Shown here piece by piece: positions 14,288 to 38,549 of a DNA stretch of 38,549 nucleotides. The DNA is from a virus. Position 1 is the stretch's first letter, and every line of letters starts with the position of its first letter. The DNA lies in the IMG/VR virus record IMGVR_UViG_3300025892_000004, positions 1-38,549 of that record; one strand, given 5' to 3'. Below the pieces are notes generated by a model, which saw only the letters and a list, made by a program, of their open reading frames with translations, made no database searches and was not told where the DNA came from. The translations under genes and the position numbers were made by a program.

Positions 14288-14309
14288 GCAGGTCAAAAGG
14301 AAGAGCAAA

Positions 14310-16524: not shown

Positions 16525-16574
16525 ATCTGTTAGCAACGAAAGGTAAGGTGATCGTATATCTTTCCAACTTTTAG

Positions 16575-16615
16575 CACTGGTCTCAGGTACACAAGCCCTT
16601 TGATCAGTGTTTTTT
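16575..16615 (+). terminator. Terminator ending the plus-strand (late) block
   Basis: CACTGGTC (16575-16582) pairs with GATCAGTG (16602-16609), with one G-T wobble. An inner AGG/CCT pairing is possible, and TTTTTT follows at 16610-16615. Confidence 0.65.
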
Positions 16616-16768
16616 GCAGCCATATAATATCTTTATGGCTCTATGCCCACTTATTAAGTCTCAAATGTTTGCAATGTTCTCAATGTTATAGTATACCACT
16701 GTCGGTGCTTCGGTATCAGGGGGGAACGAGTGTGATCGGTTAATCTGAACAGCCGTTCCCTCCACCGT

Positions 16769-17008
16769 TTATATGTCAGTCTCTATGCTAAACAATCCCT
16801 CTTTGCCTTCTAACTCGGTAATAGAGATTAATGACCAGAACTGGCTGGCTGATAAAAATAGTACTTGATACTCCTGTAGATCTTCGGTCCATTGCCTAAT
16901 AAACACACGACCATCTCGATCAATGTAAACCTCTATGTCTTCTTGTTCACCATTGGTATCCAGAGCGACAATCTTCTTGTGATTATCTTCGGTTTCTACC
17001 GTAAACAT
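16769..17008 (-). CDS. Hypothetical acidic protein (79 aa), last gene of the minus-strand block
   Basis: SD CAGGAAAA lies 8-9 nt before the ATG. The gene lies downstream of the terminator that follows the RNR gene. Confidence 0.6.
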   Translation of the reverse strand: MFTVETEDNHKKIVALDTNGEQEDIEVYIDRDGRVFIRQWTEDLQEYQVLFLSASQFWSLISITELEGKEGLFSIETDI

Positions 17009-17030
17009 TACGTTTATTTTCCTGTTGTAC

Positions 17031-17061
17031 TAAAAGGCCCCAAAGGGCCTCTTGTTTTTTT
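17031..17061. terminator. Bidirectional hairpin terminator
   Basis: AGGCCC (17035-17040), CAAA loop, GGGCCT (17045-17050). On the plus strand CTTGTTTTTTT follows; on the minus strand TTTTA follows. A second 9-bp stem (AAATCCCAA/TTGGGATTT) lies at about 17066-17107. Confidence 0.7.
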
Positions 17062-17108
17062 GGTAAATCCCAAACCGATGTTTTCCCAAAGGTCTTATTG
17101 GGATTTCT

Positions 17109-19022
17109 TTACGCTGCCTCAATGTCTACGAGTTCACAGACGCCACCAACGCAAGCCATTGTCTGACTGCCTTTAGTGTTGTCCTCTTTCTCGTATTCTG
17201 TAAGTTTGCCCCAGTCGATGCGACTAGGCATCTTTCGCTTGGCTGCCTCATACTCCATCTCTGTGCAGTCCTGATAAGGAGCCTGTTGGTATGTATGCTC
17301 GAACTTTGGCAAGAAAGAGACACCAGACATTTCGTCAAAGTACTTGTAGACAAATGCACCTACCTCTTCCCATTCATCTTCTCCTACATCGACGGTCACT
17401 GACGGCTTATGGCAAGTATAATGCCTTTGGTACATGAGCCACATATTTAACTGGTCGATGGCTGTCATATCATGCCGAGTTATAGATCCGACCGGACTCT
17501 CTATTGGAAAACTAAAGACAGTCGTTTGATCAGGTTTCATAACACATGGCTCACTAGGTATCCCTTGGTCAATCATGAACTGCGTCAGTGGATCTTTATT
17601 GTCTCCACGCACTGTACGAATGTAGAAGTCATTGTATCGAGCGTGAATCCCAGAAGCCGTTTGACACAGTTGTGAAACCGTCCCACTTGGCTTGACCGCT
17701 GTGACTGCAGCCGACTTATTGATACCCAACTGATTGGCATAGAACGCATTTGTATCCACAGCAATCTTTCGTAGCATCTGTAGTCGAGAATTTAGGTTCG
17801 GTTGCTTACCGTTGGTCAGGGTGTTGTCCATAATCCCAGTCATCGATACGCCTAACAGTGCCTCTTTCTCTGTCGTCTCTTTCCAGATTGGACGGAGGTA
17901 GGGGAAGTAGGTGAAGGTTGCTTGGATGGTTCCTAAGATACTGGCCAGTCTAATTTTGCGGCAGATCGAGTCCATTGTGTCAGTCTGGCGAATGCAAACC
18001 TCTGTTAGATTGCACAGTTGGTGTGGTAAAAGGGTGATTTCGCTGCAAGGATTGGTGCCATAGAGAGCCTCTGGATCTCGCTTACCATCGGCTAAACACC
18101 GATCTTGGACTGCCTTGCGATTAAAGATGCCACGTTCACCAGATCCTGATGCAACTAAAGCATTCCATTCCTCTATGAATGCCTCGTGACTTGGCTTCTC
18201 AGAGTAGGCTACAGAGTTATTGGCTAAAGCGAAGTGAGGGTTGTCTTTCCACCACTCGCCACTCTTGGCTTCACGCATTTCAGTGTCACCGAGGTCCGAG
18301 AGGCTGATCATGGCTGACCTTCGCACACCGCCGACCACAACTACATCACCAATCTTAGTCATGATGCTATGGACCTCGAGAGGCGTTAGGTTTCTCCCGA
18401 CTGCACCTTGGAACGTCGTGATCGTATGATCGAACAGATCCACAAGTGGCTGTGGTCCAGACGCACGTCCACCGAATGTCTTTAGTCGGGCTCCTGCAGG
18501 GCGAACTTGAGAGATGTTAAACTTTGGTATTCTGCCGAGGTAAAGTTCCTCGATGAGTTGCCTATAGGCATCAGCCCATCCTTCTTTGGAGTCTAGGACG
18601 GTGATGATGTTATTTAGGTCTGACTCATAGAGAGAACTTGGAACGCCTTGGAGTTTATTGACGAACTGACTTTCAACGCTGTAGCCGACACCAGTTCCGT
18701 TCAATAGGATATATAGGACCTCATCAAAGCATCTATAATGATTGATAGGTGTGTAAGAGCAGTTGTAACCTGCAAGGTGGTCTCGTTCCAATGCAGGACC
18801 TGCGGTCATCATCGATCTCATGGATGGCATAATGTCGAGGTTGAGGATGGCTTCCTCTATCTCTTTGTGGACCTCTCTCTTGACTTTATCTCCGACCACA
18901 TTCGACATATAGCGATCTACTGTCTCAGTCCAAGTTTCCCTACGTCCCTCATCCTCAATCCATCGAGCATATCGACTTGTGTGGATGAACGCCTGATAAT
19001 CGGTAGGTAGGTAGTTATTCAT
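17109..19022 (-). CDS. nrdJ: Ribonucleotide reductase, class II (adenosylcobalamin-dependent) type
   Basis: A 637-aa single-chain RNR. It has an N-terminal FIHTSRYARWIEDEGRRETWTETVDRY motif, the active-site TNPCSEITL motif and a C-terminal redox Cys pair (CVGGVCE). No separate small-subunit gene is present. Confidence 0.8.
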   Translation of the reverse strand: MNNYLPTDYQAFIHTSRYARWIEDEGRRETWTETVDRYMSNVVGDKVKREVHKEIEEAILNLDIMPSMRSMMTAGPALERDHLAGYNCSYTPINHYRCFDEVLYILLNGTGVGYSVESQFVNKLQGVPSSLYESDLNNIITVLDSKEGWADAYRQLIEELYLGRIPKFNISQVRPAGARLKTFGGRASGPQPLVDLFDHTITTFQGAVGRNLTPLEVHSIMTKIGDVVVVGGVRRSAMISLSDLGDTEMREAKSGEWWKDNPHFALANNSVAYSEKPSHEAFIEEWNALVASGSGERGIFNRKAVQDRCLADGKRDPEALYGTNPCSEITLLPHQLCNLTEVCIRQTDTMDSICRKIRLASILGTIQATFTYFPYLRPIWKETTEKEALLGVSMTGIMDNTLTNGKQPNLNSRLQMLRKIAVDTNAFYANQLGINKSAAVTAVKPSGTVSQLCQTASGIHARYNDFYIRTVRGDNKDPLTQFMIDQGIPSEPCVMKPDQTTVFSFPIESPVGSITRHDMTAIDQLNMWLMYQRHYTCHKPSVTVDVGEDEWEEVGAFVYKYFDEMSGVSFLPKFEHTYQQAPYQDCTEMEYEAAKRKMPSRIDWGKLTEYEKEDNTKGSQTMACVGGVCELVDIEAA

Positions 19023-20650: not shown

Positions 20651-22304
20651 TTTCTGCTACCTCATTATTCCGGCAAGCAATCTGCATCTCGTCGTGGATC
20701 CACCCCATGATAAAAGCATCGTTGCCGTGTTGTTTCTTGATTTCATCGAAGGTCATCATCACCCACTGCTTTGACACAATGCTTCCGCATGATTGCAAAA
20801 GTTGGCTTAGACAGCGATGCTCACTACGGATCTTTAACTTCCGTCCATCGATGCCTTTGATGTACCCTCGTTTATAGGCTTGCTTTAGTCGTTTCTTTAG
20901 AGTGGCAAAAGCCGGAACGGCCTTGTCATAGTTTTGCTTTAGTCTTCTTCCGAGCGAGGCGTTACCACCTGCTATCTGTCCTATCAGGGCGTCACCTGCC
21001 CCGAAAAGCGTTGCATAGAGCCATGTTTTCGCTTGGCTGCGCGTCTTTAAACCTGCAGCCTTTTGATTGAAGGTGTGGATGTCGCCCTCGAGGATCACCT
21101 TACAGTACTCACCGCCATCATAAGGATGGAGATAAGAGGCTAATGCTCTCGCCTCGATGCCTGACAAATCTGTGCCGCACATGACCCAACCTTTAGGAGG
21201 ACCAAAGAGACTTCTGCACTCTTTGCCATACGCAGATCCGGCGCTAGGCACCTGACCCAAGTTTGGTGATCGATGAGCCGCTCTCGACGAGGTACAAGCG
21301 TTGGACACAATAGTGTGTCGTAGTCTGCCGTCGTCACTGACCTTCTTCATCCATGATCCATTACCTTCAGCCAACATGCCGATCCGTTTCTGTAGTAGAA
21401 AGAACTCACCTAGTTTCTTGGCTTCTGGGAAGGGAAGGGCGTTTAAGACCTTTTCGTCGATCTTGGCCTGACCGCTGTCTGTCCATTGTTTGGGCTTCCA
21501 GTTGTACTTATCCTCGAGGCACTTCTGGATATGCTGACGAGACCCTGCGTTAAAGTAGACTGTCTTGCTTTTGACAAACAGTTCGTCCTTCTTGTATCCG
21601 AGTGTCTTGTTGTCTCGCTTTGGATAGAAGTCTTCAGTCACTTCCCACGGTGGAAATAGATCCTTCAGACTATCCTCGATCTCGTGTCTCTTCTGACTCA
21701 GTTCTGCGTATAGTTCTGCAGCCGCTGAACCATCAAAGGTCCATCCGTTGCTGCCGATCTCTCTGCAGATCTCAGCCATCCGGTGTTCCAGATGTATCGA
21801 GTGTTCGCTTGGCTGTGTCTTCATTAGAGACTTGTAGAGGGTAAGAGTGACTGCAGTGTCTTGGACACAGTACGATAGCATCTCTTCAGAGAACTCTTCC
21901 CATCCACCACTATAATCATCCTTGAAGTCAGACAATCGAAGACCCCAAGCCTTCAGACTATGACTGCCCCAAAGTCGCTTTGGAAACTCATCTTGAGTAA
22001 AGCCTCTCTCTGCATCCTCAGCAACCAACTCATTCTTAATCAGCCTAGAGAGGACTAAGGTATCCGTAACCGTGCCTGACGGTTTGAAGTCGGGATAGAT
22101 AAGTTGAATTGCAGGGATGTCAAAGTCGATGATGTTGTGTCCTATGATCTCATCGGCTTCAGCTAACAGTTGGACACCTTCAGCGACATTATCTGGTCTA
22201 AAAGATCTAACGTCTTTGTCGTCTACCGACCGCAACACGAGACAGTGCATTCTGTCCATCGTTGGCAGTAGGCCATTGCTCTCTAAGTCGAAGACCCATC
22301 TCAA
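20538..22304 (-). CDS. DNA polymerase, family A (T7 gp5-like, short form)
   Basis: ExoI FDLESNGL; motif A GTDLSGIEARALA; motif B RSQAKTWLYATLFGAG; motif C WIHDEMQIA. At 588 aa there is no room for a thioredoxin-binding insertion. Confidence 0.9.
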   Translation of the reverse strand: MRWVFDLESNGLLPTMDRMHCLVLRSVDDKDVRSFRPDNVAEGVQLLAEADEIIGHNIIDFDIPAIQLIYPDFKPSGTVTDTLVLSRLIKNELVAEDAERGFTQDEFPKRLWGSHSLKAWGLRLSDFKDDYSGGWEEFSEEMLSYCVQDTAVTLTLYKSLMKTQPSEHSIHLEHRMAEICREIGSNGWTFDGSAAAELYAELSQKRHEIEDSLKDLFPPWEVTEDFYPKRDNKTLGYKKDELFVKSKTVYFNAGSRQHIQKCLEDKYNWKPKQWTDSGQAKIDEKVLNALPFPEAKKLGEFFLLQKRIGMLAEGNGSWMKKVSDDGRLRHTIVSNACTSSRAAHRSPNLGQVPSAGSAYGKECRSLFGPPKGWVMCGTDLSGIEARALASYLHPYDGGEYCKVILEGDIHTFNQKAAGLKTRSQAKTWLYATLFGAGDALIGQIAGGNASLGRRLKQNYDKAVPAFATLKKRLKQAYKRGYIKGIDGRKLKIRSEHRCLSQLLQSCGSIVSKQWVMMTFDEIKKQHGNDAFIMGWIHDEMQIACRNNEVAENVGNIARRMAKEAGVALGLKIPIAAEHTVGQNWCDTH

Positions 22305-22666
22305 CGGTTGTCTCCAGAGCCGCCTATAACACCACGCTCTTTTCTATCTGCTAGTTTTTCAATGTTCATTTTGGCTATGTCGTTGAGAGAGATGTTTAGA
22401 TCCCTTGATAGGGCGGCAATGTACCAAAGCACGTCACCCAACTCAGCAGCCACAGTCAGTCGCTGTTTGTCGGTCAAAGCAAAGCCTTCGACGGAAACGT
22501 GTTCGTCCCTCATTATTTTCTTCAGAGCGCCACAGACCTCACCTGCCTCATTCGCCAATCCGAGGGCAGGATAGATGATTTTGTCACGATAGATTGCTGT
22601 CTCGGCTGTGTCCGCCTGATATGCGTTCAAGGTGTAGTTATCAAATTCTGACGGTCTCTTTATCAT
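22301..22666 (-). CDS. mazG: MazG-like nucleotide pyrophosphohydrolase
   Basis: LANEAGEVCGALKKIMRDE and AELGDVLWYIAAL motifs. There are ATGA overlaps with both neighbouring genes. I took the start at 22666. Confidence 0.8.
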   Translation of the reverse strand: MIKRPSEFDNYTLNAYQADTAETAIYRDKIIYPALGLANEAGEVCGALKKIMRDEHVSVEGFALTDKQRLTVAAELGDVLWYIAALSRDLNISLNDIAKMNIEKLADRKERGVIGGSGDNR

Positions 22667-23010
22667 TTCACTGCTCTCCAGACTTTTTGATTTCTTCCGC
22701 GAAAGTTCTTGCGGACCCCAACACACTCAATGACACCATCGTCCGTGAGTTTCTTGAAACTTGATGTGACTGATCCATAAGGCATGTGTGGTAACTTTTG
22801 CTGTATCTCAGAACTGATGATCCCTCGATCACCTGCATCCAAAATTACCTTGAGGATCTGTCGCTCTTTTTTAGAATGGTTGACTGAATGATACGCTTGA
22901 ACAGACGTTCTCAACGTGTAGTCGAGATAAGCATCAGCCATCTTATTGATTTCAGCGTTACTCATTACCAAGGGCAACTCTGATTGTTGCCAGTTCTTTA
23001 AGTCGTTCAT
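22663..23010 (-). CDS. Winged-helix (MarR-like) DNA-binding protein (putative)
   Basis: 115 aa. KKERQILKVILDAGDRGIISSEIQQKL...GSVTSSFKKLTDDGVIECVG resembles a wHTH fold. Confidence 0.5.
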   Translation of the reverse strand: MNDLKNWQQSELPLVMSNAEINKMADAYLDYTLRTSVQAYHSVNHSKKERQILKVILDAGDRGIISSEIQQKLPHMPYGSVTSSFKKLTDDGVIECVGVRKNFRGRNQKVWRAVK

Positions 23011-25663: not shown

Positions 25664-25677
25664 ACTTTTGTCCTTTT

Positions 25678-25715
25678 AGAAAAAGGGGCGGACCCCAGTT
25701 ACAGAAGTCCGCCCC
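25678..25715 (-). terminator. Hairpin plus T-run between the RNAP and SSB genes
   Basis: Minus strand: GGGGCGGAC, a 13-nt loop, GTCCGCCCC, then TTTTTCT. The SSB SD lies directly after it. Confidence 0.7.
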
Positions 25716-25749
25716 AGACAGGGAGAGATAAAAAGAAGAAAGACATCGC

Positions 25750-25772
25750 TTCCTTCAAGAGGGGGACATAAG
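25750..25772 (-). promoter_or_regulatory. Candidate phage-RNAP promoter (P_B)
   Basis: Minus strand: TTATGTCCCCCTCTTGAAGGAAG. It shares TGTCCCCCT plus N3-4 plus GAAG/GAAAG with the sites at 28405-28428 and 31889-31911. Confidence 0.4.
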
Positions 25773-25774
25773 TA

Positions 25775-28387
25775 CTAACTAAAACAAAAGTCGCTGTTTT
25801 TAATTTGCTCCAGATCCAAGGTTCCTTTTTCTGGGATCTTATGCTCAAAGACATGCGCCGGATTGTTCAACTGATTCCTGATCTCATCCTCAAACTTGTC
25901 GAACAGACAGTCCTCTGAATACATATCCACGAGAGTTGATCTTACAGTGTCGTAAAGATCCCAAGCGTTGCCACTGACTGAAAATGAGTCATGGATCATG
26001 AAAAAGTCTTCCGCTGTGCCATCGTCGATCATCCGACACACAACTTTATGAACGTGGGCGCTGTCGCAGCCATGGATGAAGTTGGGCGCGATGGCATTTG
26101 TCGCCTTTTTGACGTCCGCTGCATCCAACTCCTGACTGAGGCTAACTTTAGTTCTCTTGCGCTGCTTGATTGCTCGGTCATACAAAAAGATCTTGATCTC
26201 TCGACGTCTGGTCTTTCTGTAGTCTTGTACAATCGGAAAGCCGCTCGGAGATGTCCACTTGACCGCCTTATTCTCTCGCGCCAAGACCTCCGTGATGCCT
26301 TGGAGATACTCCATAGCGCCAGAGACCTTCGGTAAGGTCTTCTGGATCGCTTGGTAACTTACGTTGGCAATGAACCTAGCCGCCTCGAATTGACCTTGCT
26401 CTGTCGGCGCTATTGGGTGCTTATCGATTAGTTTGTAGGCGACTTTGCGCTGCAAAGGCTTCATAAGATCTTCGACGAATTGTGCCGCCATGCCCACTGG
26501 CTTCGAAGAGTAGCCAAAGGTCATTGTTGCTCGCTTCAGAACGGATCTTGTGATGCCGTAGTCGAGCCAGACGCGACTTAGTTTTCCGACTGTCGAACTG
26601 TCCTTCCGTTTAGCGTTAAACTTCACTTTGCTCGACCGCTGCTCCTCAAGGATCTTTGTGACACTCTCTGCATTACTGGCGTAAATGTCTGCCACGGTCT
26701 TTGACGGTACAAGGTTGACCAATGCTCCTTCACGCTGACTGCGGTTTAGGCATGAGTAGTGCTGAACGCCACTATTAGTGCCATCCATGGCGATGGGCAC
26801 ATAGCAAACAAAGTCTTCACCTTCCTCAACCCATCGAGCATACTCTAGGGCTGCGGCAACGAATTGGAACGGCTTGTCTGCTTTACTCCAAAAGTCATAA
26901 GATTGCTTAAAGTCCTTGGCTATTGAAAGAATGTTGTCGTGGTTGTCTTGGACCCACTCGACACGCTCGTCCAAGGGTGCCTTGCTGATCTTATCGAAGT
27001 CTCCGACGTTTGCCAGATGGATCATCAGCCAGTAGGCATTGTTGCCCTCGACTCTGTAGCCTCTGTAGTAGGTAAACAGCGCCTTGATGTGATCGTCACG
27101 AAAGTAGTTGAACGACGGAATGCTGTATATACGCCCTCGAAAATCAAGGTTCATCGGCAAGAAGAACTTATCGTGGACCGCTAGTTCATGCGCTGTCTGA
27201 AGATCCTGTCTCATGACCTCCGCTGCGCCCTTGACCTGCGTCACCAGTTTCTGGTGCCTACGGATGTCGGCTTTGATTTCCGCGATGACTTGCGGCTCCA
27301 ACTCTTGCCAGTTCTCCGGCATCCGTGGTCTCTCTGGTAGATCTTGAGTCGGAAACTTGCCCAACTGTTTACGCTCGTCCCAACACCACTGGACAACCTC
27401 CAGAATGGCGTCATTGATTGCGAGTGGTGTGGCTTGGATAGCGTTGACTGCTCGGACGTAATCTGGAGTGCCTTTCGTAAACTGATGTCGAATTGTATTC
27501 TCTTGCTCTATCGTTGGCGACCTCACCAACTTCACACAACTCGAAAGAAACTCATCGTGATAGGCACCAGTATCAAAGTCCGTCCATGGGTTTGGCTCTG
27601 ACAGCATCGGTTTAAATATGGGTGCCATCCAACTTAGGTATTTTTCTGACTTCTCAAGTTGCTTCTCGGCTGCTTCCGTGAACTTCAGCCGAAGCATCGT
27701 ATTGTTTTTGCCTTCGATCTCAAGTGACTTGTCGAACACATGAGAGCACTCAAGCACAATCGATAGAACAGGAGCCGCAAGTTTGGTCCGTCGTTCTTTG
27801 ATTGACTGACGCTCGGCCCTTGTCTTTGCAGTTCCAAAGTTCATTGATCGAAAGCCATTTTTCTCCGCGATAATGCGTAAAGCCTTCAGTCTGTACTTTG
27901 GACTAGAGTGTGCCGTTGTCACCTGATTGATTATTCTTTTGTTGGTGTTGCGTGGCTTTGGGCGCTCTAGTCCTGCTTTGGCTGCAATGTCTATGGCTGT
28001 CTGATGTTCCTGTTTGTCGTGCCATAGCAACTCGTTCTTTAGTAACTCTTTCTCGATCAGTTCGCCAATCGTTTGGGTTATTTGGGTGACTGTGGACACC
28101 TTCAACACCCCATTAAAAGAACACATTAGACCAATGTAAGCCAAGATATCTTCTTCAACTGTAGACAACTCTTCGACCCAAGTTGGAATCCGTCCCTTAG
28201 ACTTCCTGCCTTCTTTAAGTGCCTTTTGTATGCCTTCAGTGACTTTGGGCATTGCTTGTTTTAGGTGGTTGAAGTGGGAGGGGCTATCTGTGACATCTTC
28301 GGAGCCCTCGTGCTTGTCTTTGTATCTTTCGTTTCCTTGGTCTCTCATAGATGTTTCGTAGGCGGCATTAGTGTCTGTAGTGGTCAT
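25775..28387 (-). CDS. Single-subunit DNA-dependent RNA polymerase (T7 gene 1-like)
   Basis: 870 aa. DGTNSGVQHYS (T7: DGSCSGIQHFS); RSVLKRATMTFGYSS (T7: RSVTKRSVMTLAYGS); IHDSF; C-terminus ...DFCFS (T7: ...DFAFA). Confidence 0.95.
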   Translation of the reverse strand: MTTTDTNAAYETSMRDQGNERYKDKHEGSEDVTDSPSHFNHLKQAMPKVTEGIQKALKEGRKSKGRIPTWVEELSTVEEDILAYIGLMCSFNGVLKVSTVTQITQTIGELIEKELLKNELLWHDKQEHQTAIDIAAKAGLERPKPRNTNKRIINQVTTAHSSPKYRLKALRIIAEKNGFRSMNFGTAKTRAERQSIKERRTKLAAPVLSIVLECSHVFDKSLEIEGKNNTMLRLKFTEAAEKQLEKSEKYLSWMAPIFKPMLSEPNPWTDFDTGAYHDEFLSSCVKLVRSPTIEQENTIRHQFTKGTPDYVRAVNAIQATPLAINDAILEVVQWCWDERKQLGKFPTQDLPERPRMPENWQELEPQVIAEIKADIRRHQKLVTQVKGAAEVMRQDLQTAHELAVHDKFFLPMNLDFRGRIYSIPSFNYFRDDHIKALFTYYRGYRVEGNNAYWLMIHLANVGDFDKISKAPLDERVEWVQDNHDNILSIAKDFKQSYDFWSKADKPFQFVAAALEYARWVEEGEDFVCYVPIAMDGTNSGVQHYSCLNRSQREGALVNLVPSKTVADIYASNAESVTKILEEQRSSKVKFNAKRKDSSTVGKLSRVWLDYGITRSVLKRATMTFGYSSKPVGMAAQFVEDLMKPLQRKVAYKLIDKHPIAPTEQGQFEAARFIANVSYQAIQKTLPKVSGAMEYLQGITEVLARENKAVKWTSPSGFPIVQDYRKTRRREIKIFLYDRAIKQRKRTKVSLSQELDAADVKKATNAIAPNFIHGCDSAHVHKVVCRMIDDGTAEDFFMIHDSFSVSGNAWDLYDTVRSTLVDMYSEDCLFDKFEDEIRNQLNNPAHVFEHKIPEKGTLDLEQIKNSDFCFS

Positions 28388-28404
28388 GCGTCTGCTTTCC
28401 CTTT

Positions 28405-28428
28405 GTCTTTCTAATAGGGGGACAGATG
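28405..28428 (-). promoter_or_regulatory. Candidate phage-RNAP promoter (P_A) directly upstream of the RNAP gene
   Basis: Minus strand: TCTGTCCCCCTATTAGAAAG, with 13 nt (TCTGTCCCCCTAT) identical to the plus-strand site at 31892-31904. The predicted start G is 23 nt before the RNAP ATG. Confidence 0.45.
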
Positions 28429-28451
28429 GTGCGCCCTAAGTGAGACGCACC
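28428..28451. promoter_or_regulatory. Inverted repeat GGTGCG-N12-CGCACC abutting P_A (operator, recombinase core or RNA hairpin candidate)
   Basis: Perfect 6-bp arms, extendable to an 8-bp stem with one G-U pair. It lies immediately upstream of the promoter-like element. Confidence 0.5.
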
Positions 28452-28532
28452 TCTTGTCGAAAACAAATGTGAATTGATTGCCTGTCTAAAGTACACGCCC
28501 TTTAGTTAGGCGCTTTGTCTGCCTCGTGGTGC

Positions 28533-29059: not shown

Positions 29060-29902
29060 CTATGCACCACCAGACATTTGTGCCGCGATTGCTTGTAATG
29101 CGCTTGGCTTGGCTTTGATGTACTTGCGCGTCGTTTTCTCTGACCTGTGGCCCAACATAAGACCAATGACAGCAGAGTTGGCCTTGATGTCATTAGCCAT
29201 CTTGGTTGCTGCCGTATGCCTTAGAGTGTGGAACACATAGCGCGGATCCCTGTGCAGCAAGTCGCGCCTCATGCGTCCCCACGCTCGATAGAATCGCGTG
29301 TGCTCGAAGTATCGCGCAGGTAAGAAGTCGAGTGCTGCCAAGGCGTCATGCGCTCTCTTGTTCAATGGAACGTACCGCTCGTCGCCGTTCTTGGTGTCCT
29401 CCAGATGCACCCAGTTCGCTCCGGTGTCGTCTTGCTCGAGGCTGTCCCGAGTCAATCCGGTGATCTCACCAAGGCGCATTCCAGTCTGGTGTCCCAACAC
29501 GATAAAATGGGCCATGTAGGCGTCGTCAGTGCCTTTGAAGTAGGCCTCCATTCGCTCCAGTTGCTCCTCCGTAAAGAAGAGAGGCCGTGCGTTGGTCTTG
29601 GTTGCCCTCCACGTAAACTTTGGCGCGTGTGTTATGTGCTCCTCGTTCACTGCGTGACCAAAGACGCGAGTCAACATGGCTGCGTAATGGTTGACCGTGT
29701 TATCCGACAGCCCCTCCTGCGTAAGGCTGTCAAAGAAGTCGTGGATGTTGTGAGGCTTAAAGTCGCCAAGATCCCGAGTGCCGTAGTCTCTGAAGTTGGC
29801 GAACTTCTCCGCCTTCCTAACAGACTTCCTGCGGTGATCATCTGTGCCGCTCCAAAGTCTGTGCTGCTCGAACATTACGAAAGTTAAAAAGTCATAAGTC
29901 AT
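29060..29902 (-). CDS. int: Tyrosine recombinase / integrase (short, XerC/D-like)
   Basis: Catalytic pattern GMRLGEITGL (Arg), HTLRHTAAT (H-x-x-R), and LGHRSEKTTRKYIK (His and the Tyr nucleophile). There is an ATGA overlap with the upstream early gene. Confidence 0.9.
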   Translation of the reverse strand: MTYDFLTFVMFEQHRLWSGTDDHRRKSVRKAEKFANFRDYGTRDLGDFKPHNIHDFFDSLTQEGLSDNTVNHYAAMLTRVFGHAVNEEHITHAPKFTWRATKTNARPLFFTEEQLERMEAYFKGTDDAYMAHFIVLGHQTGMRLGEITGLTRDSLEQDDTGANWVHLEDTKNGDERYVPLNKRAHDALAALDFLPARYFEHTRFYRAWGRMRRDLLHRDPRYVFHTLRHTAATKMANDIKANSAVIGLMLGHRSEKTTRKYIKAKPSALQAIAAQMSGGA

Positions 29903-30389: not shown

Positions 30390-30592
30390 GATGTCTCTCC
30401 CAGTCCGTCACATTCACCACTGCAAGACAGCGCATGGGCGATACATGCGGAATACTCTGTCAATGCTTCGTTGACGTCCGTTGTACTTTCGACCTGCAAT
30501 CCATAGCGGACAGCGTAGCCATCAAAAGTCCTGAACAACTCAACGCTTATCGCGTCGTTGGTCGTGTCGTTTTTTGCGATTAGTTTAAGCAT
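30386..30592 (-). CDS. Early hypothetical protein (68 aa, acidic, Cys-rich C-terminus)
   Basis: ATGA overlap with the downstream gene. The ATG lies 1 nt after the stop of the upstream mini-ORF. Confidence 0.55.
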   Translation of the reverse strand: MLKLIAKNDTTNDAISVELFRTFDGYAVRYGLQVESTTDVNEALTEYSACIAHALSCSGECDGLGETS

Positions 30593-30593
30593 A

Positions 30594-30707
30594 TTAGTTA
30601 ACTCCCATTAATGCAGCGCCAATCCACAGACTGGCGTAAAATGTACCGAAGATGCAGAGGGCGCCGATGACGTCCCCCACGATTGCAAGTGCTTCACGAC
30701 GCTTCAT
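30594..30707 (-). CDS. Early 37-aa single-TM peptide (not in the ORF track)
   Basis: Hand translation gives MKRREALAIVGDVIGALCIFGTFYASLWIGAALMGVN. There is an ATGA overlap with the stop of the 122-aa gene, and it exactly fills the 30593-30703 gap. Confidence 0.5.
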   Translation of the reverse strand: MKRREALAIVGDVIGALCIFGTFYASLWIGAALMGVN

Positions 30708-31072
30708 GATGTCGCCTCCTTTTCCATGCCACAGATGATGTTCGCCATGAATGACCAGTAGCCATCAATGACCTTGTCTTGGAGTTTGTCGCTTGCTTCT
30801 GGATCGATTGAGCCAAACTCAATAGCCATGTCGATGATGTCGCCATTATAACAGGCGATTGGGAGAGCCAGACCAGACAGCCAGTCTGCTATCGCTTTCT
30901 GTTTGCCAACTTGAGCAACTCTCCATCCGTACTCTGAGTTGAGCCGCTCGAACAGACGCTTGATCTTGGCCTCTCTCGTGGGCAGTTCGTTGCCGTCGTG
31001 ATCTGTTAAGGTGTCGAGGATGTAGGCCTGATAGCGTGGCTTATAGACTGTGTGGTGTACCTTGCCGCTCAT
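30704..31072 (-). CDS. Early hypothetical protein (122 aa)
   Basis: ATGA overlap with the upstream gene. The composition is globular and I recognised no motif with certainty. Confidence 0.65.
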   Translation of the reverse strand: MSGKVHHTVYKPRYQAYILDTLTDHDGNELPTREAKIKRLFERLNSEYGWRVAQVGKQKAIADWLSGLALPIACYNGDIIDMAIEFGSIDPEASDKLQDKVIDGYWSFMANIICGMEKEATS

Positions 31073-31629
31073 GACTGCACCTCCAGACCAAAGGTCCAGT
31101 CTATGGACTGTCGGAGGTCATTCTTGAGGGCAAAAGACTGGAACACCCATCCTTCGCCATATTGCTTTCCTCTGTACTTGTTGGCATATGCCGGACGGAT
31201 GAAGTTGCCTTCAGCATCTTGGAAAAAGTACGCTCCGAGGTGGTAGCGTGGATTGCCGTTCACGTCGTTGTTGATGCGAACTGCTTGGGCCTCTAGGCTG
31301 TTGGCCATGGCCTCTACCGCTGCTTTCTTTTCGACTGCTTCAACGGCTTCTTTCTTGACCTCCGAAGATAACATTGAAGGATCATTCAAAGACTTTAGAA
31401 CAGCCCTAAGTGCCTCCGGTGATCCGTCAGTCGGGACGATGATATGATGCTTTGTGCGCCACACGTCGCCATAGTATTCGTGATTAAATGCTCTAGTATA
31501 GCCTTTGAAGCCTTCTTCCCAAACGTCCACGACCTCCGAACGTTCGTAAGACCCAAAGACGTCAACCCACTCGTCACCTTCGACGCCATAGTTCAAGATT
31601 AATGTGTAGTATTTAGTTTCTTTAGACAT
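31069..31629 (-). CDS. First early gene, hypothetical protein (186 aa)
   Basis: SD AAGGAG lies 7 nt before the ATG. It has an acidic N-terminal half and a C-terminal VNGNPRYHLGAYFF...YRGKQYGEGWVF segment. Confidence 0.65.
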   Translation of the reverse strand: MSKETKYYTLILNYGVEGDEWVDVFGSYERSEVVDVWEEGFKGYTRAFNHEYYGDVWRTKHHIIVPTDGSPEALRAVLKSLNDPSMLSSEVKKEAVEAVEKKAAVEAMANSLEAQAVRINNDVNGNPRYHLGAYFFQDAEGNFIRPAYANKYRGKQYGEGWVFQSFALKNDLRQSIDWTFGLEVQS

Positions 31630-31734
31630 ATGTTCTCTCCTTGTCTGTCTTGTTAGACGAGGATGTCGGAACTTTATGTCTACTGTGGCCTAGTGGCCTG
31701 AGTCGGGCTGTGTGCCTCTGCTTGGTGCTTTCGG

Positions 31735-31757
31735 TGGGGAGTTACAGTCCCCTGCCA
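31735..31757 (+). repeat. Hub hairpin motif copy 1 (TGGGGA-N4-CNGTCCCCTGYCA)
   Basis: TGGGGAGTTACAGTCCCCTGCCA. The GGGGA/TCCCC stem encloses a 7-nt loop. 18/23 positions are identical to copy 2. Confidence 0.6.
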
Positions 31758-31888
31758 CACCTTGCGGCCTGTCGCCCTATCAAATGTAAACCAAGGCCCC
31801 AACGCCTCGTTAGACCCTTAATGAATCAACGGACATCCCCTGTCAACCCCTTGCCAGTCAATTAGTGACTGAAAGAGACAATAGAAGA

Positions 31889-31911
31889 CCTTCTGTCCCC
31901 CTATAGAAGCA
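31889..31911 (+). promoter_or_regulatory. Candidate phage-RNAP promoter (P_C) heading the plus-strand block
   Basis: CCTTCTGTCCCCCTATAGAAGCA. The CTATAGAAG 3' end resembles the SP6/T7 -5..+4 region (CACTATAGAAG). Two further YCTATAG elements lie at 31940-31947 and 32016-32023. Confidence 0.45.
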
Positions 31912-32527
31912 GAAGAGCGGTGATCACTGCCGACGTCTGCACTATAGTTGACTGAGGAAACATCCTCCTCGACCACACAAAGAACACAAACAAAAGAACT
32001 TGAGTGACCTTAGTCTCTATAGACGGAGGTGCTTGAGGCGCGAGAGTCGATCCCATGAGCCGAGGCCCAACCCTCGACCATCAGGTGATCCTCTCGCAAC
32101 TAATAACACAGACAAAAGATCGGGAGTTACTAAAGATGCTGAAGAAACTGAAAGAGATTATGTGTCGCCTCATCGACGGACTAAGGAAGATCGTGAGTAG
32201 ACTTGTCGGCGCTTGTGTTGCCGTGTGGATCTGGTGTTGGTCTTGGCTCCCGAAGTCGGGCTGATTGTTCTAGTGTTTGGCTGTGTCGTGTGGCATTGGC
32301 TGCGCTTTGTGTTCTATGAGTCGAGAGAGGGCGAGAGACGGAGGCACGAGAGGCGACGAGAGAGACTGAGGCATCGTGGGCCACCTTGGAGTGATCCTGA
32401 GGTCTGATGAGGCTGTGAGTGGCTGTGGTCCCTATCTGTATCGAAAAGAAAATGACCCTCGCCGAATAAGTTTCACTAATGGCGCTAATGTCTAGCGATG
32501 CAACCATTGCATCCCCCCCAGTATCGT

Positions 32528-32550
32528 TGGGGATATTCTGTCCCCTGTCA
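32528..32550 (+). repeat. Hub hairpin motif copy 2
   Basis: TGGGGATATTCTGTCCCCTGTCA, with the same stem and loop size as copy 1. A half-site CATCCCCTGTCA lies at 31834-31845. Confidence 0.6.
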
Positions 32551-32739
32551 AAGAACACCAGTAAAAACAGTGGCTTAGTGGATCGACCTAAGAAAACTTA
32601 GGTTCCCTAGCCGAAATCAACCCCCACGCACCAACGAAAAAGATCAATTTCAAAAAGTAGACTAAAGGTCGGCGTTGTTGTTGTTGTAGTCCGTCTCTTT
32701 AAAGCAGCGGCTACTTTTGAAAACAAAAGGAACTTTAAG

Positions 32740-33576
32740 ATGGGCTTAGAAACAGCAGCCACTATTGACCAACTGAACACGTCGAACCCTGTCGCCACAG
32801 ACGGCTTGGGGCAAGCAGACGACCACATACGTCTCATCAAGTCAGCGGTAAAATCCACGTTCCCCAACGTCACCGGAGTAGTCTCTGCGTCACACACAGA
32901 ACTAAATAAAATCGACGGATACACAGGTAGTACAGCAGAACTTAATGTACTCGATGGTATCACAGCGACTACAGCCGAACTCAATAAACTTGATGGCGTC
33001 ACTGCGTCTGCAACAGAACTCAATAAGGTAGACGGACTGACAGCATCTACAGCCGAACTCAATAAACTTGATGGTGCTACAGCGACAACCGCCGAGTTAA
33101 ACTATGTGGATGGTGTTACTAGCAACATTCAGACACAGTTAAACTCAAAGTATGTAGCAGCAACTCAAACTACAGGTACATGGCAAGCAGGTACAGGTGG
33201 GACAGCTAGTTTAGTTACACCTGCAAATATAAAGGCTGCCATTATTGCCTTAGAACCAAGTTCTACACCTGCCTTCACATCTCAGGTTGCTTTTACCTCT
33301 AATGTCACCTCTGCAACACACGGATTAGGGGGATTACCCTCACGTTGGGAAGTAAGTATTGTATGCACAACGGCAAACTTAGGCTATGCTGTTGGAGATG
33401 TTATCCGCTTAACTTCACACAACGAGGGTAGTGGTGCCCGTGGTACTACTGTGTCTGCTAACGCCACACAGATTACAGTAGCTGGATCCTCTGTATTTCT
33501 TCAAACAAAAACAGGCTCTGGGGTTGCAGCACTAACAAACGCTAGTTGGGATCTTATTTTTGAGGCTTGGACATAG
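32740..33576 (+). CDS. Tail fibre / fibre-adaptor-like protein with six 13-aa ELNxLDG repeats
   Basis: 278 aa with SD AAAAGGA upstream. The N-terminal DDHIRLIKSAVKSTFPNV motif is common at podovirus fibre N-termini, from memory. Confidence 0.65.
   Translation: MGLETAATIDQLNTSNPVATDGLGQADDHIRLIKSAVKSTFPNVTGVVSASHTELNKIDGYTGSTAELNVLDGITATTAELNKLDGVTASATELNKVDGLTASTAELNKLDGATATTAELNYVDGVTSNIQTQLNSKYVAATQTTGTWQAGTGGTASLVTPANIKAAIIALEPSSTPAFTSQVAFTSNVTSATHGLGGLPSRWEVSIVCTTANLGYAVGDVIRLTSHNEGSGARGTTVSANATQITVAGSSVFLQTKTGSGVAALTNASWDLIFEAWT
32893..33123 (+). repeat. In-frame 39-nt tandem repeat x6 ([TA][AT]ELNx[LIV]DGxT[AG]x)
   Basis: HTELNKIDGYTGS / TAELNVLDGITAT / TAELNKLDGVTAS / ATELNKVDGLTAS / TAELNKLDGATAT / TAELNYVDGVTSN. 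Confidence 0.85.
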
Positions 33577-33582
33577 TGACGA

Positions 33583-33786
33583 ATGGTCGAGCGCGTTAGA
33601 ACATTTTTAGATGACTGGCTCATATGGCCTAGAGGCATGATGATCGCTTTTACAGTCATGTCGTGGAGGGTGGTGGAGTGGTTTATGAACCTACCGGACC
33701 CTACGACACAGCAGTCAGCCCTAGTATCAGTCGTAATGGGATCCGCTACAGGAGCCTTCGCCATATGGATGGGAAAAGAGGCATGA
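33583..33786 (+). CDS. Small two-TM membrane protein (67 aa)
   Basis: Two hydrophobic segments (MMIAFTVMSWRVVEWF and ALVSVVMGSATGAFAIWM). The SD is weak. Confidence 0.45.
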   Translation: MVERVRTFLDDWLIWPRGMMIAFTVMSWRVVEWFMNLPDPTTQQSALVSVVMGSATGAFAIWMGKEA

Positions 33787-33789
33787 GTC

Positions 33790-33975
33790 ATGTTTAGTGC
33801 AATAATCTTCGCTTGTTCGCTCCATGTAAGCGAATGTCAAACCATATCACACCCAAGAATATTTACAGATAAAAAGGCGTGTATGGACAGTCTTAGCGTT
33901 GGTGTCGTGGATGTCCAAATGCAAGGATGGCGGATCGAGCAATTTACTTGTTACGAGTGGGCAGAGGAAGCCTAG
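33790..33975 (+). CDS. Small Cys-containing protein with a hydrophobic N-terminus (61 aa)
   Basis: SD AAGAGG lies 8 nt upstream. The N-terminus is MFSAIIFACSL and the protein has five Cys. Confidence 0.5.
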   Translation: MFSAIIFACSLHVSECQTISHPRIFTDKKACMDSLSVGVVDVQMQGWRIEQFTCYEWAEEA

Positions 33976-33996
33976 CACATAAAGAAAACTATTAGA

Positions 33997-35622
33997 ATGG
34001 AGGAGGGTGTAGTGCCTAACTTACCAGTCCGAGGACTAGGTTCTGTAGGTGTGGTCACTGACGTTGACCCCTACAACCTACCGATCAACGGCTTCACTCG
34101 AGGCAAGAACGTCAGATTCCACGAAGGCAAAGTGACCCACGGTCCAATCTTCAGAGACGTCAGTCCAGCCAGTACAATAAGCAACCCAATTTTTGCCTAT
34201 GGCATACAGTCAGCCACAGGTTACGATACTGTCCTGTTGATCGACGATACCTTCCAGATCAAAGAGTTGAGTAATGGTGTGTTTACGACACGACATGCAG
34301 CCACTACGCAATCACCTCTACATGAAGTAACAGCGACAACTTTAGCAAATGTCATCTATGTAAACCGCAGTGACCAGATCCCTTTGCATAGGACTTCTAG
34401 TAACTCTAGTTTCACAAACCTGCCAAACTGGCCTTCGACATACAGAACAAAAGCCCTCAGATCTTTCGGAGACTTCCTGATTGCATTGAACACTACAGAA
34501 GGCGGTGTCGATCATAAGAACAGGGTCCGCTTTAGTACTACAGCATTGTCGAACAGTGTCCCTACTACTTGGGACGAAACAGACACTACAGAGTCTGCAG
34601 GTTTCAACGACCTAGTACAGATGAAAACATCTATAGTCGATGGAGCCACTTTAGGGTCCAACTTCTTGATCTACTCGTCTGACCAAGTGTGGATGATGGA
34701 GTTTGTTGGTGGTTCGTTCATCTTTAACTTCCGCAAACTATTCGACGACGCAGGGGTTATGAGCCAAAACTGTATAGTTGAGGTAACAGGCAAGCACTAC
34801 GTTTTCGACTTCGATGACATCTATATCACCGATGGCAACACTAGGCAGTCTATCTGCGACGGTCGGGTCCGAGACTACATCTTTAACGGCATTGACTACA
34901 ACAAGCGTGACGAGTGTTTTGTGTTACATAACGCTAACCTTGAAGAGGTATACTTTTGTTATCACTCAGGCGACGATCTTGCTGTTTTCGAAGACGGAGA
35001 CAAGTGTAATCGAGCGGCTGTCTACAACTACAAAGAGGATACTTGGACCTTCCAAGATTTACCTAATGTGGTGAGTGGAAGTATTGCCAACATTTCGTCA
35101 GCGGAATCCTATAGTTCAGTCGATTCTGGCATAAATTATGCTAACTCAGGTGGTACTTACTTGAGCCAAGAGTCTGAGTTTAAACGTCATGCACTTATGG
35201 TTTCCAAGTCAACAACTGGTGTCTCTAGGTCTACAATGTACGGTCTCGATTTGCCGGACCTTGGGTCTTTAACTGAGGCGGCAGATACTACCGTGAGTAA
35301 ACCTGCGTTCTTAGAGCGAACAGGTATAGATTTAGATGAGCAAGGGACTCCGCTCTCAGGCTACAAAGTGATCAATGCGTTTTATCCTCAGATGAACACA
35401 CCTAATACAGATGGTAACTTTGAATTTACATTTGGAGCGGCAAATATACCGACGAACACTCCAAACTATGAGTCAGCAATAACCTTTGACTCGAATGTAG
35501 AGTACAAAGTCGATACTCGGATCTCAGGCAGATACCTCAGTTACAAATTAGCATGTCCTACTCTCAAGGACTTTGCGTTCTCTGGTATGGACTTGGATGT
35601 GATTGTCACAGGCAGGAGGTAG
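33997..35622 (+). CDS. Tail (nozzle / tubular-B-like) structural protein (putative)
   Basis: 541 aa. A more likely start is the GTG at 34012, which lies 8 nt after GGAGG. The N-terminal GLGSVGVVTDVDPYNLPINGFTRGKNVRFHEGKV pattern resembles podovirus tail proteins, from memory. Confidence 0.45.
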   Translation: MEEGVVPNLPVRGLGSVGVVTDVDPYNLPINGFTRGKNVRFHEGKVTHGPIFRDVSPASTISNPIFAYGIQSATGYDTVLLIDDTFQIKELSNGVFTTRHAATTQSPLHEVTATTLANVIYVNRSDQIPLHRTSSNSSFTNLPNWPSTYRTKALRSFGDFLIALNTTEGGVDHKNRVRFSTTALSNSVPTTWDETDTTESAGFNDLVQMKTSIVDGATLGSNFLIYSSDQVWMMEFVGGSFIFNFRKLFDDAGVMSQNCIVEVTGKHYVFDFDDIYITDGNTRQSICDGRVRDYIFNGIDYNKRDECFVLHNANLEEVYFCYHSGDDLAVFEDGDKCNRAAVYNYKEDTWTFQDLPNVVSGSIANISSAESYSSVDSGINYANSGGTYLSQESEFKRHALMVSKSTTGVSRSTMYGLDLPDLGSLTEAADTTVSKPAFLERTGIDLDEQGTPLSGYKVINAFYPQMNTPNTDGNFEFTFGAANIPTNTPNYESAITFDSNVEYKVDTRISGRYLSYKLACPTLKDFAFSGMDLDVIVTGRR

Positions 35623-37489: not shown

Positions 37490-38549
37490 ATGGAATGGGA
37501 AATAATTAGCCAGAACCCTAACTTTATGTCTGCTCTAGCCAATGACCCTAGAGTCGGGCCAGATCCGAAAGCATGGTATAGCCGTCTTAGACCAGAAATA
37601 CAAAAGTCATTGGCTGAGTCTTTTATGCCAAAGTCAGGTACAGTTGCAGAGCCGATCCTAAACCCGAACATGGCCCAGACAATAAGTCAGATTAACAGAC
37701 CTGCTTTAGATCAGGTTCAACCCCTTGTTGCTGCAGATAATGGTGTACTAGCAGGTGGCTTTAATGCCGATGGCGTTGCTATTGGTACAAACATGGAAGC
37801 CGACGTAGACCCCAACAAAGGTTTCGTACCAGTCACAGTAGGGTCTGGAATGAGTATGGGTGTCGTCATGTATAATCCAGAAACTGGCGCGGTCATGCCA
37901 GTAGAGGGTAATAATGTTAGCAATCTAATCGCTCGGAACCCCAACGTCCAAAACATTGCTATGGAGGCTTACAACAACCGTGTAAATGCTCCAGTACTAG
38001 AGGCCAAAAAAAACCTTAACACTGCCCAAGGTATCATCGATGCCACAGATGGTCAGGTAAGTGGTCCTGTCCTTGAGCAGTACACAGATGCTAAACGAAA
38101 TCTGACTGAAGCCCAGAGACGCGCTATGTCTAACATGTCTGACCCTTCAGCCGTGGACATAGCAGCTAACAGACCGTCTTACGAAACTCCAGTTCTATCA
38201 GGTCTCGAAGAGTTTGAGGCAACTAATACTCCGTATGTACGTCCTACAGTGGTCAACAATCCGAATGTACCCGAAGTGTTTCCAAATCCGAATTTACCTA
38301 ACGTGGACTTTGCAGATCCAACTATGGCTCCAACAAATGCTCTTAACGCAGGGCCAGTTCTTATAAACGACAATAAGCCAAATCTGCCCTTTAATACTTA
38401 TAGCGAGAATGGAGTTCTTACCGATAACTCTGCACCAAACACTGTGACGAACTCAGGTATCTTAGGAACAGGTACGTCAAACCGTACGTCAGGTGGACCA
38501 AGTGTTCGCTCGATCATGGGTTCTTCGGGCATGAAGACCAGCAACAGAC
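37490..38549 (+). CDS. 5' part of the junction-spanning 585-aa virion protein (continues at position 128 after the overlap)
   Basis: The ATG at 37490 has GGAGG 9 nt upstream, and the frame stays open to the window end. It is absent from the ORF track because no stop lies inside the window. My translation starts MEWEIISQNPNFMSALANDPRVG. Confidence 0.7.
   Translation, partial: MEWEIISQNPNFMSALANDPRVGPDPKAWYSRLRPEIQKSLAESFMPKSGTVAEPILNPNMAQTISQINRPALDQVQPLVAADNGVLAGGFNADGVAIGTNMEADVDPNKGFVPVTVGSGMSMGVVMYNPETGAVMPVEGNNVSNLIARNPNVQNIAMEAYNNRVNAPVLEAKKNLNTAQGIIDATDGQVSGPVLEQYTDAKRNLTEAQRRAMSNMSDPSAVDIAANRPSYETPVLSGLEEFEATNTPYVRPTVVNNPNVPEVFPNPNLPNVDFADPTMAPTNALNAGPVLINDNKPNLPFNTYSENGVLTDNSAPNTVTNSGILGTGTSNRTSGGPSVRSIMGSSGMKTSNR
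38423..38549. repeat. End-overlap copy B (identical to 1-127)
   Basis: Exact 127-nt identity with the window start. Confidence 0.95.

Follow-up and report, generated by a model that had tools for sequence, protein, structure and literature searches.

What is encoded in the 1.1 kb that separate two diverging sets of genes in the virus record IMGVR_UViG_3300025892_000004 of the IMG/VR database? We addressed this question in the whole stretch of 38,549 nucleotides (positions 1 to 38,549 of that record, here called the window), in which the region at 31630-32739, here called the hub, had been proposed from the sequence letters to be a replication origin, a phage attachment site (attP) or a locus for a non-coding RNA. 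The comparison with host genomes and related viral contigs makes it likely that the hub serves a temperate T7-like phage of marine Roseobacter bacteria as its divergent region for control and integration. It contains a fragment of a host tyrosine tRNA gene (tRNA-Tyr), a promoter-like box, a small protein-coding gene and a conserved element ahead of the tail genes.

The divergent layout and the unusual size of the gap, both part of the original prediction, were confirmed. On the minus strand, the early gene ends at 31629, on the plus strand, the tail gene begins at 32740, and the hub between them is the largest gap of the genome, the second largest being 584 nt. Relatives were defined as IMG/VR contigs with both flanks and were retrieved via the two flanking proteins. 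In these relatives, the hub is about 1.08-1.11 kb long and its DNA is 87-95% identical, while the adjoining early gene is mosaic and the tail protein is divergent beyond the N-terminus. This pattern indicates that the hub is a conserved island and not junk. A BLASTN search with the hub region (window 30500-34000) against GenBank phages yielded no DNA match, and the GenBank phage set contained no cultured relative; the single-subunit RNA polymerase of the window (25775-28387, minus strand) is about 30% identical to the top-ranked GenBank phage records, with every match below 60%. The hub had also been described as richer in GC than its surroundings, a difference that exists but is marginal (50.0% versus 47.2%, corresponding to the 88th percentile of 1110-nt windows).

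A tRNA-Tyr fragment as candidate attachment site

The hairpin at 31736-31752 turned out to be the anticodon stem-loop of tRNA-Tyr(GTA). On the minus strand, the window and four other contigs read GGGCGAC-AG-GCC-GCAAGGTGT-GGC-A-GGGGA-CTGTAAC-TCCCC (alignment A1), with GTA as the anticodon. The identity block of the candidate attP (31737-31777, minus strand) equals positions 1-41 of the Roseobacter tRNA-Tyr(GTA) and spans the acceptor stem's 5' strand together with the D arm and the anticodon stem-loop. At least 120 species-representative genomes have an exact copy of this 41-mer, in each case as part of a complete 84-nt tRNA-Tyr(GTA); among the matches listed, all are Rhodobacterales of the Roseobacter group, including Phaeobacter, Sulfitobacter, Ruegeria, Roseovarius, and Planktomarina. 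The exact match thus identifies the host group and ties an uncultured phage lineage to the Roseobacter group. It also supports the attP named among the candidates in the original prediction. The check suggested there was to look for an exact match at the 3' end of a host tRNA or tmRNA gene: an exact 41-bp match to a host tRNA was indeed found, but it covers the 5' part (positions 1-41) and not the 3' end. ARAGORN and Rfam scans of the window gave no match because the tRNA is present only as a fragment. The sequence past the anticodon stem is unrelated to tRNA, no T-arm-like sequence occurs in the intergenic DNA of the window, and no other tRNA-like piece was recognised in the window, including the gap at 28388-28532.

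The position of the putative crossover is indicated by a second form of the site. In three relatives (L005, L014, and L015), approximately 95 nt of the window are replaced by a different sequence of 73 nt (alignment A1). On the minus strand, this replacement is the 3' part of the tRNA, comprising the anticodon arm, the long variable arm, the T arm CCTGGTTCGATTCCAGG, the 3' acceptor strand GTCGCCC, the discriminator A, and CCA; the GTCGCCC of these 3'-half contigs pairs with the GGGCGAC of the 5' acceptor strand. The 5'-half and the 3'-half cassette have only the 17-bp anticodon stem-loop (31737-31753, minus strand) in common, which leads us to infer that strand exchange takes place there. Either cassette was found in contigs with integrases 95-96% and RNA polymerases 96-98% identical to those of the window, and the flanks are otherwise collinear. 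The dimorphism narrows the likely crossover to 17 bp and offers a simple experimental handle. The 17-mer core is present in 106 IMG/VR contigs. Core-bearing viral contigs fall into three classes, which hold a complete tRNA-Tyr, the 3' half only, or, most commonly, the 5' half joined to sequence unrelated to tRNA.

In the classification of tRNA-targeting phage and island sites that Williams is said to have proposed in 2002, P22 and HP1 are examples of an anticodon-loop class. The candidate site resembles this class in that a symmetric anticodon stem surrounds a 7-nt loop, where the integrase would bind and the crossover would occur, and in that a tyrosine integrase is encoded nearby. In contrast to the classical duplication, which extends from the crossover to the 3' end of the tRNA, the identity block of the window runs from the 5' end to the crossover. 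The classical 3' form is absent from the window and occurs in L005, L014, and L015.

The sequence signals listed in the original prediction are all present within one base, and some of them are located on the putative attP arms. The arm on the early-gene side (31630-31736, minus strand), which doubles as the first early gene's 5' leader, is swapped as a cassette between 5'-type and 3'-type contigs. It contains the tandem GTGGCCTA/GTGGCCTG (31685-31700, one base from where it had been placed), which represents a GGCC-N4-GGCC palindrome. In L273 and L085 the palindrome reads GGTC-N4-GACC and retains its pairing, as judged from the two variants available. Many unrelated 5'-type lineages (L048-L148) have ACCAAGCGG in common about 8-10 nt past the core and anticodon stem, and this could be either a conserved arm site or a decayed tRNA remnant. 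ACCAAGCGG is sometimes followed by GAGAC..TCGC, which is similar to a tRNA variable arm.

The arm upstream of the tRNA fragment (31778-31846, minus strand) ends in the box TTGACAGGGGATGTC (31832-31846), which corresponds to the half-site of the original prediction (TCCCCTGTCAA at 31836-31846). In the window as well as in L011, L273, and L059, the box is located at a constant distance of 88 nt from the core, and it is a candidate for either a -35-like element or a protein-binding site. TTGACA of the half-site was rejected as a promoter because the expected -10 position is not conserved, and a scan with the sigma-70 consensus found no credible promoter in the hub. The hairpin GGGGA-N7-TCCCC at 31736-31752 recurs, as predicted, at 32529-32545. 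This second copy is part of a region (32513-32551) where a C-run/GGGG hairpin and the GGGGA-N7-TCCCC hairpin have a GGGG stretch in common and where one arm pair was flagged as terminator-like. The copy is a degenerate version of the att core that has another 7-nt loop and is embedded in a 27-nt repeat with 78% identity to the core region; it shows almost no variation in the 8 close relatives and is missing from L273, L059, and L097. The half-site TTGACAGGGGATGTC and the second hairpin copy could be putative binding sites for an integrase or a regulator. Taken singly, short motifs are not above chance in the window (TCCCCTGYCA, 3 occurrences versus 3.95 expected; CYCTATAG, 3 versus 1.4), and their putative meaning rests on the comparison with relatives, not on counts in the window.

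Linkage to the integrase and the case for integration

A tyrosine recombinase is encoded in the same element as the candidate tRNA-gene attP. The integrase gene (29060-29902, minus strand) specifies a protein of 280 aa (Pfam PF00589, E = 2.2e-17, and PF13102; PHROG integrase, E = 3e-37) with motifs compatible with the R-H-R-Y catalytic set, and is located 1.8 kb downstream of the tRNA-Tyr fragment on the same strand. Synteny was examined at 120 viral loci with the core, 45 of which also hold a homologue of the window integrase (34-96% identity). At all 45 loci the integrase homologue is encoded on the tRNA-sense strand downstream of the core, at a distance of 0.1-4 kb, and the RNA polymerase gene usually comes next. 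In the most distant lineages, the integrase gene begins 114-130 nt past the core, which is the compact attP-int arrangement of textbooks. One lineage with an integrase identity of 58% has a spacing of only 60 nt between integrase and polymerase genes, leaving no space for an attP between them, and has the same divergent hub of approximately 1 kb. In another 5'-type lineage (L084), the sequence is collinear with phage relatives up to the core and continues into a complete tRNA-Tyr followed by 50 nt of unrelated sequence. Judged by this order of sequences, L084 possibly represents an integration junction.

In the mechanism that we propose, the integrase would exchange strands within the 17-bp anticodon stem-loop of attP, with the 5-bp stem arms acting as inverted integrase binding sites and the 7-nt loop as the overlap region. 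Insertion would join the phage 5' half to the host 3' half and thereby restore an intact tRNA-Tyr at one junction, while the other junction would place the host promoter and the host 5' half ahead of the phage early genes. The first junction is predicted to consist of GGTTTACATT(T)GATA, the full 84-nt tRNA-Tyr and host DNA, and the second of the host TTGACG..GTAATCA promoter, tRNA positions 1-41 and CACCGAAAGCACCAAGCAG.

Several results weigh against the hub being a control and integration region of this kind. The flank of L084 extends over 50 nt only and gave no host match. A pattern for a phage arm joined to a full tRNA returned 0 metagenome contigs, and the six contigs with the core and the early-side arm were all phage-type upstream. 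Among 120 sampled host tRNA-Tyr loci, no related phage gene was found within the 8-kb locus. All 88 integrase homologues are located on contigs of at most about 43 kb, none of them visibly integrated. With its location ahead of the whole early operon, the site departs from the arrangement in described marine T7-like phages, whose attP occupies the space between the genes for integrase and polymerase. For the phage-borne tRNA half, no sigma-70 promoter was called by the consensus scan, which makes the expression route of the rebuilt tRNA doubtful. Finally, one copy of the promoter-like box described below precedes the RNA polymerase gene itself, and the box could be read by either the host or the phage polymerase.

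The strongest alternative is that the tRNA-Tyr fragment represents a captured piece of host promoter, leader or tRNA left by an old imprecise excision, which now serves as leader of the early operon or has no function. This would agree with the lack of a junction for this lineage, with the location of the fragment directly upstream of the first early gene in the same orientation, and with the restriction of all integrase homologues to phage-sized contigs. A relic, however, would be expected to decay; instead, the 41 nt match the host gene exactly in lineages whose integrases share only 34-58% identity. The exchange of 5' and 3' cassettes, moreover, retains exactly the symmetric stem-loop, the linkage to the integrase holds at 45 of 45 loci, and L084 is junction-like. 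We regard an excision relic as unlikely. The hub probably holds an attP, with both integration and the position of the crossover deduced from sequence comparison in a lineage that yielded no lysogen junction.

T7-like pelagiphages of the HTVC019P type integrate into tRNA genes of SAR11 (Zhao et al., bioRxiv 10.1101/410191; Environ Microbiol 2019). Several T7-like pelagiphages supply a partial 5' end that complements the disrupted tRNA, and the pelagiphage attP is located between the integrase and polymerase genes (bioRxiv 10.1101/410191), as is likewise stated in a later survey of marine Autographiviridae. The phage described here resembles the HTVC019P type as a marine T7-like phage with a tyrosine integrase upstream of the RNA polymerase and a core in common with a host tRNA, and the HTVC021P, HTVC109P, and HTVC120P types in carrying part of the target tRNA from its 5' end, with the core included. 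It differs from the pelagiphages in its Roseobacter host and its tRNA-Tyr(GTA) target, in the location of the site, which precedes the early operon and is separated from the integrase by 1.8 kb (0.1-4 kb in relatives), in its divergent early and late modules, and in the occurrence of either the 5' or the 3' half within one lineage; integration is an inference here. A tyrosine integrase occurs in 9 of 10 CRP-series Autographiviridae roseophages (Microb Genom 2024, PMC11092137), which also encode RNA polymerase, a protein that binds single-stranded DNA (SSB), endonuclease, primase/helicase, DNA polymerase, and exonuclease; their description lists no tRNA, and the term attP is absent from it (PMC11092137). 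The window phage is similar to them in being T7-like, in bearing an integrase and in its T7-like replication genes, and differs in that its structural module is located on the opposite strand. The accessible literature on integrase-bearing T7-like roseophages reports no attachment site.

Thus, a tRNA 5' end in attP is a design already known from T7-like pelagiphages, whereas the tRNA-Tyr target in roseobacters, the placement of the site at the start of the early operon and the occurrence of a 5' and a 3' form in a single lineage are new. We propose that a broad set of T7-like roseophages with an integrase insert at tRNA-Tyr; the core occurs in at least 100 viral contigs. The main value of these findings concerns host assignment and the lysogeny biology of marine T7-like phages; they also add to annotation a previously unannotated family of small membrane proteins and a candidate promoter consensus. 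They leave the understanding of how such systems work unchanged.

Some observations concern the tRNA-Tyr gene apart from this phage. At the host loci (L149-L268), the tRNA-Tyr gene of Roseobacter has the appearance of a hot spot for integration: right after it, two unrelated sequences are found repeatedly in different genera, for example one in L248, L161, L192, L231, L212, L255, and L264 and the other in L151, L245, L149, and L224. None of these recurring sequences is related to the phage described here. Five AT-rich viral contigs from IMG/VR (L056, L077, L098, L108, and L112, one of them from a 155-kb contig) contain a complete tRNA-Tyr identical to the Roseobacter gene, which in L056 is part of an array of nine tRNA genes. 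About 15 viral contigs end within approximately 100 nt of the tRNA core (L047, L050, L053, L060, L078, L080, L081, L100, L109, L110, and others). These ends probably reflect breaks of the assembly graph at a sequence common to hosts and many phage lineages, not physical genome ends.

A promoter-like box and possible transcription from the hub

The original prediction had placed a promoter-like cluster in the hub, at 31889-32023. Three CTATAG motifs are present, at 31901, 31942, and 32017. The first of them is part of a 20-nt box that is present three times in the genome, whereas the other two TATAG motifs are unsupported; they were rejected as box copies as they are outside the repeated box, and the third reads TAAAG in L011 and L012. 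CTAWAG was also rejected as a T7-like promoter core, being far too frequent in coding DNA. The box in the hub, GACCTTCTGTCCCCCTATAGAAG (31887-31909, plus strand), points at the small ORFs and the late genes. The other copies are located on the minus strand, in the 145-nt gap ahead of the RNA polymerase gene (28409-28430) and in the 111-nt gap ahead of the SSB gene (25753-25772), and both read TGTCCCCCT.T..GAA. Exact TGTCCCCCT occurs only three times in the genome, in each case intergenic and co-oriented with the downstream genes. As intergenic DNA constitutes only about 5% of the genome, the intergenic location of all three copies indicates that they did not arise by chance. The box is conserved at corresponding places in relatives, and in L059 one copy precedes the early genes.

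With a length of about 20 nt, its repetition between genes and its co-orientation with downstream genes, the box resembles promoters of the T7/T3/SP6 group. It differs from these in that only three copies are present, and the polymerase is very distant from those of T7 and SP6. The 3' end of the box, CTATAGAAG, is the same 9-mer as positions -5 to +4 of the SP6 promoter. The rightward box probably drives the small gene ORF-B, which is described below, and may contribute to late transcription. The copy at 25753-25772 is followed by a hairpin, GGGGCGGAC...GTCCGCCCC, and a run of five T. By analogy with T7, this box and hairpin (25664-25774) could be a promoter, a terminator or an origin region.

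The presence of a promoter-like box also bears on the proposal that the hub holds a replication origin comparable to the primary origin of T7, a function that would be compatible with others. The primary origin of T7 consists of phage promoters followed by an AT-rich stretch and is located just downstream of the RNA polymerase gene. In addition to the box, an origin would be in line with the status of the hub as the largest non-coding region and with a minimum of the cumulative GC skew at about 31.5-32 kb. However, the GC skew follows gene orientation, which switches at the hub, and the coincidence renders the minimum uninformative with regard to an origin. The hub is not AT-rich (50% GC), and its repeats belong to short families of two or three copies without iteron-like arrays. 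It also departs from the T7-type layout, being located 3.2 kb upstream of the start of the polymerase gene on the far side of the early genes. The analogy to T7 favours instead the box and hairpin at 25664-25774, just downstream of the polymerase gene, which would be at least as good an origin candidate as the hub. Based on these results, we consider an origin in the hub to be quite unlikely.

Both cassettes place the anticodon stem-loop at the 5' end of the early transcription unit, and thus the first RNA of an infection would carry half of a tRNA-Tyr. This raises the idea that the tRNA-Tyr piece is more than a recombination site and functions as an RNA decoy or regulator or as a device for swapping promoters. 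If the former were true, the RNA with the tRNA half would act, for example, against host nucleases directed at anticodons. If the latter were true, integration would put the operon of integrase and RNA polymerase under the growth-rate-controlled host promoter of tRNA-Tyr, and phage sequence would take over expression of the rebuilt tRNA. The evidence behind both readings consists of position, orientation and strict conservation, and we regard either additional role as a long shot.

Small ORFs, the late-gene element and genome context

The claim that the hub has no convincing ORF was wrong with respect to one frame. ORF-B (plus strand, 32213/32243-32407) encodes a small single-pass membrane protein of 54-64 aa, as indicated by codon pattern, the ratio of non-synonymous to synonymous substitution rates (dN/dS), homologues and hydropathy. 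Candidate starts are TTG at 32213, GTG at 32225, and TTG at 32243, the last of which aligns with an ATG in some relatives. In the part of the frame outside the overlap with a second frame, ORF-A, 11 variable codons are synonymous and 6 non-synonymous (codon-wise count in alignment A1), compared to 2 synonymous and 16 non-synonymous in each of the two other forward frames, and dN/dS is 0.08-0.43. Protein homologues with 61-93% identity are present in relatives, with 61-68% in the more distant ones, and also in 4 database clusters that are all unnamed. The distant homologues have an invariant GC.VWHWL core and a C-terminal YRGPPW.DPE motif (YRGPPWSDPEV-type). The protein has one strong hydrophobic segment (maximum 19-residue hydropathy of 2.65) and a tail rich in Arg and Glu, with 10 K/R and 7 D/E residues. 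ORF-B is a real coding gene. The two compositional blocks noted earlier were confirmed, at 75% G+T and 80% G+A: the G+T-rich block is the transmembrane part of ORF-B, and the G+A-rich 'CGAGAG units' are its Arg/Glu-rich part.

Profile searches with ORF-B found no significant Pfam or PHROG family (best E-values of 0.005-0.2). With regard to a holin or another component of a lysis cassette, ORF-B has the transmembrane segment and the charged C-terminal tail, no family profile was found, and the endolysin gene (15805-16524) is not adjacent but about 16 kb away. ORF-B is predicted to yield a small membrane protein with a basic tail, probably transcribed from the rightward promoter-like box. The status of ORF-A as a gene is doubtful, and it would be lineage-specific at best. 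Its core of 43 aa (32136-32264, plus strand) follows a Shine-Dalgarno sequence, GGGAG, at 32122-32126, and a longer form starts at 32055. In the core, 9 variable codons are synonymous and 11 non-synonymous, compared to 5/15 and 7/16 in the other frames. In L011 and L009, a stop or an indel interrupts the upstream part, and in L270, L273, and L085 the frame contains stops and no longer encodes the hydrophobic segment. The idea that a -1 frameshift fuses ORF-A and ORF-B was rejected since the overlap has no slippery heptamer and distant relatives do not conserve ORF-A.

Upstream of the first late (tail) gene, a conserved non-coding element (32587-32739, plus strand) comprises in order the hairpin CCTAAG-N4-CTTAGG, GGTTCCCTAG..AACCCCC, ATTTCAAAAAGTAGACTAAAGG, (GTT)4, and ..CTCTTTAAAGCAG, followed by the ribosome-binding site. 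The hairpin CCTAAG-AAAA-CTTAGG at 32587-32602 and the (GTT)4 run had both been predicted. The element is kept in distant relatives in which the N-terminus of the tail protein is only 39-56% identical, in the form GGTWCC..(A/G)ACCCCC..ATTTCAAAAG.CCGTTAAAGG..(GTT)4-6..CTCTTTGAAGCAG. There, it is located after a large upstream ORF on the same strand. Its conservation ahead of the tail gene in differing contexts indicates that it moves together with the first late gene. Coding is excluded by a 1-nt indel within the element. A minus-strand ORF across the element (32607-33062) was likewise rejected; it is antisense to the tail gene, and its frame is broken by a 1-nt indel between lineages. Judged by position and conservation, the element may be a late promoter or leader.

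As another explanation, the element at about 32590-32739 could mark the physical genome ends or a packaging signal at the boundary of a terminal repeat. The window is a 38.4-kb phage genome with an exact terminal duplication of 127 bp (bases 1-127 equal 38423-38549) within a coding region, which indicates that the assembly is circularly closed at 38,422 bp and that the true genome ends are hidden. The closure thus occurs by an overlap inside a gene, and the true ends should be elsewhere. T7-like phages carry short terminal repeats in non-coding DNA, and the element is conserved as DNA across distant relatives without RNA structure. However, in collinear relatives it is located midway among genes of the same strand and not beside the early genes, and we consider a role in marking genome ends very unlikely. 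Least probable of all is a structured non-coding RNA, proposed for the hairpin-rich left part of the hub or the (GTT)n element: strong conservation without coding signal at 31950-32135 and 32590-32739 and several hairpins in the hub would agree with it, but Rfam searches at gathering score and with E-values up to 5 gave no match, the folding of the late element does not surpass that of shuffled sequence (single-sequence z = +0.43), RNAalifold found 0 consensus pairs for it across 12 diverse homologues, L011-type contigs lack two pairs of the CCTAAG hairpin with no compensating change, and the G+T- and G+A-rich blocks are protein-coding.

The genes surrounding the hub are those of a T7-like phage. 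The minus-strand series runs from 31629 to 17109, beginning with small early genes and continuing with the integrase and RNA polymerase genes; the latter is followed by genes for a gp2.5-like SSB, endonuclease, primase/helicase, MazG, DNA polymerase, exonuclease, and ribonucleotide reductase. The plus strand encodes tail and ejection proteins from 32740 onwards and, past the wrap-around, the large terminase, portal, scaffold, major capsid protein, fibre, and endolysin. The genome also has auxiliary-type genes encoding a 2OG-Fe(II) oxygenase (14226-14858), the MazG pyrophosphatase (22301-22726), and the ribonucleotide reductase (17109-19022). The tail-fibre gene (12039-13871) contains collagen-like and Ala/Thr/Ser-rich repeats with periods of 9, 21, and 54 nt. 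Between the endolysin and ribonucleotide reductase genes there is a convergent gap of 584 nt (16525-17108). A GC-rich hairpin at 17032-17053 is a near-exact inverted copy of a hairpin at 4170-4191, and the two are probably shared terminators.

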